Source: Stylophora pistillata (Eukaryota). From it: a DNA stretch of 64,000 nt. This document shows, in pieces, positions 2,432-61,994 of this stretch; the stretch's first letter is position 1, and each line of letters begins with the position of its first letter. The notes below the pieces were generated by a model, which had not been told where the DNA came from, made no database searches, and was given only the letters and a program-made list of their open reading frames with translations. Both the position numbers and the translations under genes were made by a program. The stretch is from assembly GCF_002571385.2 (NCBI RefSeq), contig NW_019218058.1:207193-271192 (forward strand), read 5' to 3'.

Positions 2432-2594
2432 TGAATAAAGGCTGATATTTTCTAAAGAAACTGTTTGGGGCTGCATCGGTGCGGGTAACGAAATAATTTG
2501 GATAATTATATCAACAAAGTTGAAATGGTAAATTGGCCACCGTAACGATTACACAAGCTGACTTTTGTAGCTTTAGCCCTTCGTTCGTTGCTCC

Positions 2595-2626
<32 letters not shown>

Positions 2627-2681
2627 TGTAATCGTTACGGTGGCCAATTTACCATTTCAACTTTGTTGATATATCCAAATT
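2432..2681. mobile_element. Fold-back PLE pseudo-LTR mini-element pivoting on a hammerhead motif
   Basis: 13-bp TSD aagacaataaaag at 2419-2431 and 2682-2694; inverted arms; HHR-like GCTCCGACGAAGGGCTAACGCTCAAAACGTCAGC at 2590-2623 with GAAA mutated. Confidence 0.85.
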
Positions 2682-3622
2682 AAGACAATAAAAGAACTAC
2701 TGTGCATCATGAATATTTAGTTGGGTTTAAAATTTGGAAGATATAAGATTTTCCACAACCCAAAAATTTAAGTTCACAAAATCCTGCATCATAACATACC
2801 AAAACATTTACTACCTAAAGTTCAACATCAACTTACCCCATGTAAGTCATGTGCCACTTTTTATTTTTCTCATCTAACTTCACTCAAAATACCCATCTGA
2901 ATGCCATCAAGGATCCAGCTACCCTCTTAAAAAAAACTCATTAGGCAAACACATTTGGAAATAAAAGCTTTTCCTTCCTCAGTAATCTTAAACCATAAAA
3001 TTTGTTTCTACAATGCACAAAAAATCACTGATTCACAGAATATCAATTTAATTGTATGTGAAGTTGTACTCTGATTTAGCAAGAACTTGAAATATAGGAG
3101 ACTGGAGGAACATTCCTAATTTTGAAAAGCTCTTTTAATCAAGAGTTATTAGCTCATTACAAATAGTTAAGCTTGAGGTTTGGTGACTAAAGAAACAGTG
3201 GATTTAGGCAACAATTATGAATTGGGGAGGAATAATCACTACTAATACCACTGAACCCATGCTTACCAAGGGGGGTGGCGGAAAGGGAGAAATAGTTTGA
3301 TAAATACACAGACCTCTCTCGCAAGCCAGTAGACAAGAAAAATAATGCAAATATTCTTATGTTACAAGGCATTTTAAATTGGCTAATGAGACTGTCTCAC
3401 AACAGAATAAAAAATCCTGACCTCTGCACAAACATGACTCTGCTTTTGCTTAGTAGTAACTCGAGAAAGAGCTAGAAAGGAATGTAACTCATTAATGCTT
3501 GCTGGAAAACATTGTGAGCAAATTCTTCTGAGGAGAAAGGCTAGTCCCCATAGTTTTCTTATGTGAGACAATTATGAGAGTAATGACTGGACGACATTCA
3601 ACACTACAACAGTTAATACAAA

Positions 3623-4601
3623 TCAAACGCAACGAATATATAAAATTCATATATCTGAACTGCAGTTATAGAAACGTATTTGTGCACGATCCTCTTAGTA
3701 AAGAGCACTATTTAAGCAATAGTGAAAATAAGACCTGAAAAAATTCAGGCCTGTATGGGATTCGAACCAATGAGCTTTGCAATACTAGTGCAGCACTCTA
3801 CCAATTGAGCTAACAAGCCAACCTGTTCCCAGTTGGCTTGATAGCTCAATTGGTAGAGCACTGCACTTGTATCGCAAAGGTCATTATAACATAGCTTGTA
3901 AATTTGTGCAATCAAATTTAATAGCACGAGCATGCTTCAATTTTCCATTGTGCACACTGGTGACATGAGCAAACAAATGCCTTGCAAAAAATTTTTTTTC
4001 TCACGAGTGACTGAGGTATTTTTCATTAAAAAATGGGAAAAACTTCTGCAAAAAAGTTAAACTAGACATAGCAACAAGTGAACAAGCCAATGAAGATCTG
4101 CCTACTTTCTCTTTGGGAATGGATCTTTTAACTCCAGAGAAAGAACCCAGAGAAAGGGAAAACTAAGCAGTCAATGGTTTCATCTCGTTTCAGAACTCTA
4201 ACTTCATTTCCACGCATGAATTCACCTGTCAGTTTTTGACCAATCTGAGACAAGATCATTGAAGCATGGCGAAATACTTTTCCAAAACAAAATAAACAAT
4301 GCATTAAAGCGTAGGAGAGGGAATTTCTGCTCTTTATACATAAACTACAGCGTTGAAAATGTTATAAAACAATTGGTTCATACGTCAGCTGTGCGTTCAT
4401 CAAGTAGCTCGAGTTGTTCTCAGCTACGCCTTAAGCAACTCTAACGCATCTTTCATGCTCTCTAAACTTCCCACGTGCTTTATATCTCGATGAATGCATG
4501 CTGACGTATGAACCAATTGTTAAGTGGTTCAAATCTTGTACAGGCCTGATTTTCACTATTGCTTAAATAGTGCTCTTTACTGCGAGGATCATGCACAAAT
4601 A
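3623..4601. mobile_element. tRNA-derived SINE inserted as a head-to-head inverted pair, interrupted by a DNA element (3884-4523)
   Basis: 12-bp TSD agttaatacaaa at 3611-3622 and 4602-4613; A-box tagctcaattgg and B-box ggttc(g/a)aatc on both strands; arms pivot at ~3825. Confidence 0.8.
3884..4523. mobile_element. Non-autonomous hairpin-ended DNA element (putative Crypton-type)
   Basis: ttataacat...atgttataa inverted ends plus a terminal ~150-bp imperfect hairpin aacaattggttcat...atgaaccaattgtt; same architecture as 47961-48354 and 49659-50616. Confidence 0.65.
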
Positions 4602-4844
4602 AGTTAATACAAAGTTACTTCATTGGTGACCAACTTGAATAGTTAATTATCCAAAATTCCTATTCACTAAGAACTAATTTTACAGTGGAGCACACTAAAC
4701 ATCTATGCAAATTTCTGAATCACAACATATTGCAATCATGTTTGAATCAGGGAAACTCTCCCTCGAAGTTGAAATATATACAAACAGTTCAGTCTCAATC
4801 ACCAACTTTTTATCAAGGGTCTCCGTATTTCAGCCAGTATTGGA

Positions 4845-59144: not shown

Positions 59145-59432
59145 CTATTGCATAGCAGCTGCCTTTTCAATTTCATTGTTCTAACAAGGTTTTCGATCTC
59201 AATATAACTCAAGAGACATTAAAACCTAAATCAACGATCATTTTTAACGATCATTGCTGTAAGTTAACGATGCTGTAAGTGGTAGTTAACGATCATGCTG
59301 TAAGTGTTGTTCGTGAGAATTAACTCTTGTATTGCAACTGCCTTTTCAATTTCACTTTTCTAGCCAGGTTTTCGACCTCAATATAATTCAAGAGACATTA
59401 AAATCTAAATCAATGATCATTTAACAATCATT
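59145..59432. repeat. Local direct duplication (~105 bp, ~180-bp period)
   Basis: ctgccttttcaatttca...caagagacattaaaa.ctaaatcaa.gatcatt occurs twice. Confidence 0.8.
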
Positions 59433-60849
59433 ACCACATTTCGTCGTCATCTGTGATTTATTACAGAACAGACACACAACAACATGGAATGTATTTTTTA
59501 AATGGACTTAACTGTATCACGGAACTGGAAATGTTTCGTCAGTCTGAAGAATTTACTAATTTGTTGGTGTTACGCCATACTGAAAGATGAATGTAAAAAG
59601 TATAGAAGACGAACTGTGCTGGACACTTCTCATTTTATATCTTGTTAATAGATGGTGTCCGTTTCAAGTTGTGTCTTTTAGGAGGGCCAGCATTGTCTTG
59701 CAATAAGGGTCCAGAGTTTCTAAATTACAGTGACACACATCATGTGATTTTATGTGAGTTCCTTAAGGAACTACAGCCGTTAGCAAATACAAGCGAAGGG
59801 CGGTCAACCCAGTCGAAGTTTATTAGCGTTTCTCTTATCTTTATCTGGTCTAACTGAGTAAAAGGAAGGATATATCGACCAAAATTGCAGGAATTGATGG
59901 TAGTATCGCTTGCAGTTTAAACTTAAAAAGAGCCCTTGCGGCGTCTATAGAGTATATAACAGTAGATTGAATGTTCAGTGTCTTCCTTTACCGGTGGTTC
60001 ATTGTTACCTTTTTAATGTTTCGCGAAGAAGGTCAGTTGATCCTGAGACGAGAGCAGTTCAAAGACTTTATAAAAGCACTTTCTTAAGAAAAAGACTACT
60101 TACAGTCCTGACAAATTGTTCACAATTTTTTTCACTTCCTTGCAAAGGTGGAGGAAGCTATTTTTATGAATCTTTTAAAATAAATTGACGTCTTTTTAAC
60201 CGCTAAACAGGCTTTTTAAAAATAACAAGGCTTTGTGTGTATCTCTGCTTTTTTTATAGCAGGGAAAAATTTAGCCAAATGATATAAGAAGAAATTAGCT
60301 TTTATCTACATTTCTGACTGTTACCTTGACCCGTAAACGATCCTAATAATAAACAGGGTAGTTATAGGAGAGAAAAGTTAGCTGAGGATGTTTTGTCACC
60401 GTCTGCAGCCACGATAAGAAATTTTGCTATCCCAAAACATAACTGATCTGGCTTTGATGCCATGACAACACAGACAAAACAAAAACGGAACTACTCCAGC
60501 CCAAGTAATTGAGTCTTTTAGTTCTCTCCATATTGGCCTTGGATGCAGATTTTTTTTCTTTAGACTGCTGCGCAATTAAAAGATAACCAGTTGACATTCA
60601 TGTGTCAATTCTTCATGAACACGTCAATTAAAACTTGATTAGGTCGTCAGCTTTTAAAGAAAGCACTCGACAAACCCGAATTGATTCTACCTATAGTAAA
60701 TTAAATGAATTTTGTTTGTGGGATCCTGATACGAGGTCCGCATGGCTATCATTTAGAACCACAGATACACTACATAGTCTACACTCGTGTAAGAAACTAG
60801 TTAAAGATCGTTTTCTTCTTTTACACCAGACTGGAGGCATTTCTTACTG

Positions 60850-61764
60850 ATGGAAGAGACATTTGGAACATTCTGCGGTTCTACAAGTTCTCTCTATTAC
60901 CCAGCCGCGCTAAGATTTCCAAAAGCTGTGTACATCGCTGCCTGTGTTCTTAACACGATCACGTCGCTTGCATCAATTGTTGGAAACATTTTAATTCTTT
61001 TGGCTCTTCGTAAATGCCAGTCTCTACATTCTCCATCAAAAGCTCTGTTATGTAGTTTGGCTTTGACGGACCTTTTTGTTGGTGTGATTGTTCTTCCGCT
61101 CTTCGCAGCTTACAATATGATGATCATTTTAGAAATACCCAAATATTACTGTACTGTGGCTATCACATATGCAAGAGTATCGACCTTCATTGGTGCTGTT
61201 TCGCTTGAGAACATCGCTACCGTTGCCGTTGATCGATATCTCGCTCTGCGTCTTCGCCTGAGATGCAGACAGGTCGTCAAACTTGGACGGGTTATTTTTA
61301 TATTGGTTTTAGAGTGGATCATCGCAGCATTTTTTGCAGGTTCCTGGTTTCTAAATGGACCAATCAATTTACTTTCTGGTACAATTGCTATGCATATCAT
61401 TTGTCTTATCACATAAATTTGCTATTTTAGTATGAATCGCGGCATCCAGCTTCACGTTGCCCAAGTTCATCATCTGACACATTCCACGGCACCAGGGATT
61501 GACTTCAATGCGGTTCAATACAAAAAACCGTGAACAACTCACTATGGATCTTCTTGCTCTTTCTTTTATGCTACATGCCATCTTTGTTATCTTCCCTAGT
61601 AGTAGTTGTCACAGGAATCAATGATTCAACTCGTTTCGCTTTGCAATTTGGGGCCATAACAGTCTATTTCAATTCTGCTTTAAAATCCGATTCTATATTG
61701 CTGGAAGATCAAAGAACTAAAAACCAACGTTACTACTCTTCTACAGGTGGCATGCAATTTCTGA
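60850..61764 (+). pseudogene. Intronless class-A GPCR pseudogene, paralog of 56744-57670
   Basis: GN, LALTD and DRY intact; TAA at 61414-61416; -1 frameshift in the A-run at ~61525; +1 frameshift at ~61683; NPILYCW...TGA ends at 61764. Confidence 0.88.
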
Positions 61765-61903
61765 TCAAACAATATGCATGGTAGCAAAGACTAGAACATA
61801 GTGTCATATTTGACACAAATCCTGATGGATAGCCCAAAACATAACGGTTTATAAATGAATATTTTAACTATTAAATAGCATTTACTCAACCAAGTTTCCT
61901 TTT

Positions 61904-61994
61904 AATTTGGATATGTCAACAAAGTTGAAATGGTAAATTGGCCACCGTAACGATTACAAAAGCTGACGTTTCGCGCTTTAGCCCTTCGTCGGAG
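61904..61994 (-). mobile_element. 91-bp HHR-headed mini retroposon
   Basis: 13-bp TSD caagtttcctttt at 61891-61903 and 61995-62007; begins with GCTCCGACGAAGGGCTAAAGCGCGAAACGTCAGC. Confidence 0.88.

Follow-up and report, generated by a model that had tools for sequence, protein, structure and literature searches.

Why would independent insertions of one retroelement family begin, or fold back on themselves, within a few nucleotides of the same point? The question is raised by a 64,000-nt stretch of the Stylophora pistillata genome (NCBI RefSeq assembly GCF_002571385.2, contig NW_019218058.1, positions 207,193–271,192 of the forward strand; hereafter the window), which carries short copies of the hammerhead-bearing pseudo-long terminal repeat (pLTR) of a Penelope-like element (PLE). 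For convenience, these short copies, 90–250 bases long, are called stubs, and positions are numbered from the C of the hammerhead CUGA box in the window's long element, which is 0 (window 9147); the predicted hammerhead cut follows +27 (window 9174). The stubs have a fixed 5′ edge, two classes of 3′ ends, target-site duplications (TSDs) mostly of 13–14 bp, one short and one tailed arm per fold-back, and no separate lineage. They are likely to form when reverse transcriptase (RT) initiates within the 5′ repeat copy and copies the RNA up to its 5′ end, which is predicted to be a TATA-directed transcription start lying 7 nt 5′ of the hammerhead core.

The 5′ edge of the stubs

In the window, three insertions of this family (family 1) are flanked by TSDs. 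The fold-back at 2432–2681 consists of an inverted, tailed left arm (+3 to +148, minus strand) and a short right arm (−3 to +89, plus strand), between 13-bp TSDs (AAGACAATAAAAG; 2419–2431 and 2682–2694). The fold-back at 10524–10765 has arms of −6 to +144 (minus strand) and +2 to +92 (plus strand), between 15-bp TSDs (10509–10523 and 10766–10780). The solo stub at 61904–61994 (minus strand) covers −3 to +89 and has a 13-bp TSD (61891–62007 with TSDs). All three were described in an earlier note on the window, and their coordinates and TSDs are confirmed. The breakpoint near the CUGA box, which the earlier note saw as shared, is also found in a worn, tailed solo stub (16795–16945, minus strand, +3 to +148, 77% identical, no TSD found) and in the inverted, tailed pLTR arm at the 5′ end of the long insertion (7179–7332, minus strand, about −1 to +147). 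A worn short stub at 49163–49261 (minus strand) ends near the hammerhead, and a copy at 47145–47312 (plus strand), whose tail is duplicated and whose TSD measures 11 bp (one mismatch), starts at +42, off the edge rule. An older PLE 3′ fragment at 10295–11049 ends at +34, just past the hammerhead; the 10524–10765 fold-back sits in its endonuclease region.

The clustering of 5′ ends is real and general in this genome. An unselected sample of 140 stretches of 10 kb, taken at fixed offsets on contigs 1–35 (1,292,691 non-N bases; 1.29 Mb), yields 73 arms that contain the segment behind the ribozyme, of which 65 remain after removal of eight that abut the end of a stretch or a run of Ns. Their 5′ ends lie further upstream than −200 (5 arms), at −200 to −41 (9), −40 to −11 (2), −10 to −1 (25), 0 to +9 (9), and +10 to +55 (15). 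The interval −10 to −1 holds 25 of the 60 ends that lie in −200 to +55 (binomial p 8e-20). A second set of 81 loci, retrieved by queries wholly behind the cut and freed of duplicates and self hits, gives 132 usable arms, 55 of them in the same interval. When the two sets are pooled (197 arms), 4 arms start at −20 to −11, 80 at −10 to −1, and 39 at 0 to +9. The breakpoints are thus not uniformly distributed, and the clustering noted in the window holds genome-wide. The density is ~56 arms per Mb, or ~22,000 in the 398-Mb genome if large contigs are typical.

The distribution is one-sided, with a wall at −7/−8 on the upstream side and a trail downstream, which is the shape expected of a template end. 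The modal edge is at −7/−6, 33–34 nt upstream of the predicted cut; the earlier note placed the breakpoint upstream of the cut as well, at a distance of ~25–30 nt that needs this correction. Its statement that the breakpoint is not the self-cleavage end holds, since 5′ ends fall at the cut site (+26 to +30) in 5 of the 197 arms only. When uniform truncations, solo and fold-back, are simulated and passed through the same pipeline, 38 of 901 calls lie at −10 to −1 versus 36 true ends, which rules out an artefact of BLAST ends. Subfamily divergence upstream of −7 is ruled out as the cause, since TSD-flanked stubs exist and long copies can be aligned across the edge.

The edge is visible in RNA reads as well (four runs from two studies; 7,782–16,319 reads per run). 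The depth changes about fourfold in a step at window 9139. Loose ends occur before 9141 (261–612 reads per run; agreement 0.36–0.39, indicating many different flanks), before 9144, and behind 9236, and opposite-strand joints connect 9138–9147 with 9148–9159.

Two 3′ end classes and the pairing of arms

The 3′ ends of the arms form two classes, near +89 and near +148. In the long element, the first corresponds to the end of the pLTR body (9178–9236, plus strand) and the second to the end of a 59-bp tail (9237–9295, plus strand); the two ends probably mark RT start sites 1 and 2. One short arm and one tailed arm are combined in 48 of 50 fold-backs (half expected; p 1e-12), the tailed arm being on the left in 28 and on the right in 20. 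The rule extends to 56 of 58 pairs when long copies are added, and to 7 of 7 pairs in a second family. Of the 50 fold-backs, 33 have a TSD (8–18 bp; 13–14 bp in 19), as do 9 of 37 young single arms; at random sites, the same search reports a TSD in 3 of 137 cases. In accordance with these end classes, PLEs have two known internal start sites: according to the available text of Frangieh et al. 2024 (PMC11167929), the protein of Poseidon, a PLE of Anolis carolinensis, extends both target strands in vitro, initiates at two internal sites, one at each boundary of the tail, and accepts uncut RNA as template. In that system, no strand preference between the sites is described, whereas one of each is used per insertion here, and neither a fixed 5′ end nor a transcription start is mentioned in the text.

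The two arms of a fold-back also share a limit or its absence. When one arm ends at −14 to −3, the partner ends at −14 to +9 in 30 of 38 pairs; when one arm extends beyond −20, the partner ends at −14 to +9 in only 1 of 9 pairs (Fisher p 3e-4; four of the nine long-arm pairs come from the long-copy search, and the unbiased 2×2 table gives p 0.012). This is expected if both arms are primed on one repeat copy, 5′ or 3′, of one RNA, and it fits a cap and a trimmed RNA end alike.

Fold-back junctions often use short inverted words inside the hammerhead (TTCG/CGAA at −6/+4). They are present in RNA reads, and the top joints, among the joints listed, are fold-back junctions. Their presence in RNA agrees with the earlier note, and a yield of hairpin RNA is plausible.

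The second family, with no relation to the first, provides a fold-back in the window at 44823–45200, flanked by 13-bp TSDs (44810–44822 and 45201–45213) and pivoting at about −3 of its own hammerhead. Its left arm is short; its right arm is tailed, with the tail split by a nested insert of ~185 bp (about 44987–45169). The breakpoint at this family's own ribozyme had been recognized before, with the insertion taken to span 44828–44986 only. The whole forms a nested stack at 44587–45322, in which an element with 30-bp inverted ends encloses the family-2 fold-back, itself interrupted by the ~185-bp insert.

A transcription start or the ribozyme as the source of the edge

The long element of the window (7333–9295) contains a 5′-truncated, decayed open reading frame (ORF) at 7333–9048 (plus strand), with RT-like words (YIDD, GVTMS..LG, ADKG) that can be read by eye in the broken frame; its short open pieces have no Pfam RT match. 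The C-terminal GIY-YIG endonuclease (8750–8911) is matched by PF01541 above cut-off (window 8696–9046, and locus L213). Other copies have ~330 more bases, comprising the 5′ untranslated region (UTR) and the start of the ORF, and no TSD is found for the element. It is not the full PLE for which it had been taken. In loci L027, L325, and L329, the 5′ pLTR continues into the ORF, and inverted arms and tails are present; loci L213 and L258 have a CX2-5CxxC linker (CARARCKTC) between RT and endonuclease. Judged by these sequence features, the parent is a GIY-YIG Penelope-like element with a Neptune/Nematis-type linker, assigned to no finer clade.

A TATA-like box, TATAAAA (9109–9115, plus strand), has its first T at −38, 31 nt upstream of the breakpoint edge, and an initiator-like TCC-A-TT (9137–9142, plus strand) places its A at 9140 (−7), the upstream edge of the stub 5′ ends. 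A TATA box (consensus TATAWAWR) 31 nt before a pyrimidine-A step that fits the initiator consensus is the layout of an RNA polymerase II core promoter. The word T[AT]TA[AT]A is found at −38 in 38 of 44 long copies, as TATAAA in subfamily A and TTTAAA in subfamily B, and the long copies read TCC-A-TT or TCT-A-TT at the edge, with A at −7. When one mismatch is allowed, each reference has only this TATAWAWR-like site in ~510 nt, against a background of 0.006 per nt. The repeat of near-full copies continues into the 5′ UTR, with the ATG at +228; transcription from −7 would thus begin before the ORF. The 5′ repeat of one near-full copy (L329:904–1241) starts at about −40, just retaining the TATA-like box.

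The spacing is similar in family 2, which has TATATA at −36 and its edge at −4/−3; 6 of its 32 usable arms are at the edge, none at −40 to −11, and 6 at 0 to +9 (two loci overlap, so that two long arms are counted double). Family 3 (L036:9159–9589, L272–L300) is a third PLE family that inserts in TA repeats; its hammerhead has a longer palindrome in stem III, and its TATA-like word, TTAAAAA near −38, is spaced in the same way. Across families 1–3, the distance from the TATA-like box to the edge is 31, 32, and 32 nt, versus 4, 0, and 2 nt from stem I to the edge. The edge is therefore most likely a transcription start at −7, as judged from a TATA-like box whose spacing recurs in family 2 and, weakly, in family 3; of the options raised in the earlier note, the transcription start is the best supported. 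A splice acceptor at the edge, as in Drosophila virilis, is ruled out, because no AG is present there.

Several observations weigh against this reading. In the four runs, there is no site at which many molecules begin or end, and 80–84% of the RNA reads run on into unlike sequence, on both strands alike, as expected of copies inside host transcripts. A cap-derived extra G is not seen at the junction: G precedes 1 of the 15 junctions called at −7. The count of 38 in 44 rests on relatives, not independent copies, that were selected for an intact upstream region. The pile-up in family 3 is weak (4 of 33 arms at −7 to −2, 3 at −40 to −11, and 19 beyond −40). Hammerhead and TATA-predicted start are only a few bases apart in all three families, so the two rulers are only weakly separated. 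The tail is on both ends in the window's own long element and in 2 of the 50 fold-backs. Finally, the Penelope promoter of D. virilis, the one mapped animal PLE promoter among the works consulted, is reported to be TATA-less and internal in the available text of PMC2377424.

The hammerhead itself (9144–9177, plus strand) is of the minimal type I found in PLEs, with stem I GCT/AGC, a CTGACGA core, a stem II of 4–5 bp, GAAA, and a palindromic ACGT; the core CUGANGA with GAAA..UH, stems I and II, and the palindromic stem III are all present. Stem I differs in sequence yet pairs in the three families (GCT/AGC, AACC/GGTT, and GCAC/GTGC). Rfam returns no hammerhead match, only hairpin look-alikes and one tRNA. 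The subfamily B hammerhead has C at position 4; in the commonest subfamily of the unselected sample (L195:4590 and related copies), CCGACGA replaces CUGANGA, and the cut triplet of family 2 is UUU. The ribozymes of the latter two may be weak or dead, in elements still spreading. The family-1 monomer is predicted to bury the core in an inactive CUGACG/CGUCAG helix, in line with an uncut template, and no pile of RNA ends is seen at the cut site in the four runs.

The same edge could instead be made by processing, if a 5′-to-3′ exonuclease trimmed the RNA up to a folded or protein-bound hammerhead and left 4–7 nt, all later steps being unchanged. Such trimming accounts for the hard upstream edge, the paired behaviour of the arms, the absent extra G, and an edge close to stem I in three families. 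However, it gives no account of the TATA-like box 31–32 nt upstream and the pyrimidine-A at the edge in each family, and the distance to stem I varies (4, 0, 2). We consider it unlikely. Somewhat less probable still is that the ribozyme fold makes RT stall or switch template, as the earlier note suggested. Ends do cluster at the hammerhead in three families, junctions use inverted words within it, and the region folds into a hairpin. However, RT reaches the fold from its 3′ side (+30), whereas ends are sparse at +10 to +55 and pile up past the 5′ side. If RT stalled, the arms should be affected independently of each other, yet only 1 of 9 partners of long arms stops at the edge, versus 30 of 38 partners of arms that end at −14 to −3. 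In addition, hammerhead mutants of the Anolis element leave the size of the in vitro product unchanged in the text available (PMC11167929).

If transcription does start at −7, the following order of events would produce the stubs. The first 35 nt of the mRNA would be the hammerhead, uncut in the template. The endonuclease would cut both target strands with a 13–14-nt stagger, and the two strands would prime cDNA synthesis on a single repeat copy, at +89 for one strand and at +148 for the other. Both cDNAs would extend to the cap, over 96 or 155 nt, and their ends would be joined head to head through short inverted words to give a fold-back; if one arm were lost or tiny, a solo stub would result. 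The usual long copies, with their variable truncation, would result from priming in the 3′ repeat copy instead. Stubs, which lack the TATA-like box, would be inactive from the moment of insertion.

In retroviruses, synthesis of minus-strand strong-stop DNA is primed by a tRNA at a distance of 100–150 nt from the 5′ end of the RNA and terminates by run-off at the cap. The proposed stubs differ in that they would be primed by target DNA and integrated at once, with strand transfer hypothetical. One may nevertheless speculate, as a doubtful extension, that PLEs replicate by a retrovirus-like strong-stop and jump: cDNA primed in the 5′ repeat would be copied to the cap and transferred to an RNA 3′ end with the hammerhead cut at +27, and stubs would be failed jumps. 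If so, cleavage would leave a 34-nt terminal redundancy (−7 to +27, an R region), which would assign a function to the ribozyme and provide the step that regenerates the pLTR, for which Schostak et al. 2008, in the text available, see no obvious mechanism.

The status of the stubs and their relation to known elements

The earlier note proposed that hammerhead and pLTR form a self-contained mobile unit, a PLE-dependent short interspersed element (SINE) or retrozyme. Stubs are abundant (49 of the 65 unselected arms start at −10 or further downstream), flanked by TSDs, and present in RNA, and PLE-derived retrozymes exist (bioRxiv 10.64898/2026.07.22.740005, available text). However, stubs form no lineage. 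Over +5 to +85 (97 stub arms and 63 long arms in three subfamilies, the third with only 3 long copies), net divergence between stubs and long copies is 0.0001, −0.0006, and −0.0002, and no position is diagnostic (best column p 0.037 of 81, uncorrected). The arms of a fold-back belong to the same subfamily in 25 of 28 pairs, but they differ from each other by 0.072 versus 0.068 from other copies, and 10 of 174 variant sites are common to both; maintenance of the hairpin between arms is thus not seen. Changes are more frequent in the hammerhead (4.8%) than downstream (3.0%). Junctions vary, the tail is on the left or right (28, 20), the stubs are single or head to head with no head-to-tail tandem units, and matches to 49 stub 5′ flanks are arm remnants and one local duplication only. 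No correctly placed RNA polymerase III A or B boxes are found in stubs by eye against the consensus, and no pile of molecule ends in the reads points to circular or unit-length RNA, in libraries ill-suited to small circles.

With no divergence from long copies, no TATA box, and independent decay of the arms, a new SINE is unsupported. A self-propagating unit is very improbable, and for family 1 this reading is largely refuted. The stubs look like neutral, once-made products, as far as their sequences tell; with the fixed stop likely at the RNA start and not at the ribozyme, they are probably dead by-products of the Penelope-like element.

The element class is known, and the literature already describes inverted arms, tails on one side, and minimal hammerheads that are dispersed or lie on opposite strands; the comparisons that follow refer to the available text of the works cited. 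Endonuclease-containing PLEs (Craig et al. 2021, PMC8557442; Arkhipova et al. 2013, PMC3846280) have in common with the present family a pLTR, an inverted 5′ arm, a tail on one end only, TSDs of ~8–15 bp, RT followed by GIY-YIG, and a CX4CX2C linker as in Neptune/Nematis. They differ in tail length (30–40 bp versus 59 bp here). In addition, 5′ truncation is treated there as variable, whereas 5′ ends pile up at one point here, and inverted junctions are explained by self-priming on an antisense template, whereas the tail rule holds in 48 of 50 fold-backs here. In the same works, the pLTR of Adineta Pen2a contains a TATA and an initiator-like word, and the inverted arm of this element falls 37 bp short of the full pLTR length; by analogy, this short arm would fit a run-off at the start.

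Minimal hammerheads of metazoan PLEs (Cervera and de la Pena 2014, PMC4209133) have the same minimal type I motif and palindromic stem III. Dispersed single hammerheads and opposite-strand pairs 100–700 bp apart are reported there as probable truncated PLEs, but where the fragments begin, or why, is not analysed in that text. Metazoan non-LTR retrozymes (PMC7229834; bioRxiv 10.64898/2026.07.22.740005) are likewise small, non-coding, hammerhead-bearing, and PLE-related, with larger TSDs; however, they are head to tail, have lineages of their own, and form circular RNAs, whereas stubs are single or head to head and have no lineage. Neither a fixed 5′ end at a transcription start nor a strong-stop reading was found in the literature searched; the supplementary figures of PMC11167929 and Lunse et al. 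2017 may bear on it.

Other repeats of the window stand apart from the stubs. At 3673–3885, a tRNA-headed repeat, from a ~250-bp, often tandem family common in the genome, forms a head-to-head fold-back. As a ribozyme-free control this family is uninformative, its copies mostly extending past the tRNA start among the matches listed. Imperfect 190-bp palindromes at 49661–49850, 47963–48160, and 4368–4523 belong to a separate family, unrelated to the pLTR, in which a motif scan finds no hammerhead. Further palindromic repeats lie at 31848–32070, 28371–28517, and 24304–24379, and a 987-bp direct repeat (95% identity) at 34891–35876 and 39100–40069.

The integration of PLEs, the reason for their hammerhead, and the origin of inverted pLTRs are open questions in the field, and the shape of the stubs hints at the copying mode of this poorly understood class of elements. 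If the edge is a transcription start, PLE promoters could be mapped at no cost from the thousands of stubs in each genome (~56 arms per Mb here), which would also preserve a fossil record of priming by two strands at two sites of a single RNA. In such genomes, the majority of dispersed minimal hammerheads would then be inert by-products and not a new mobile class.

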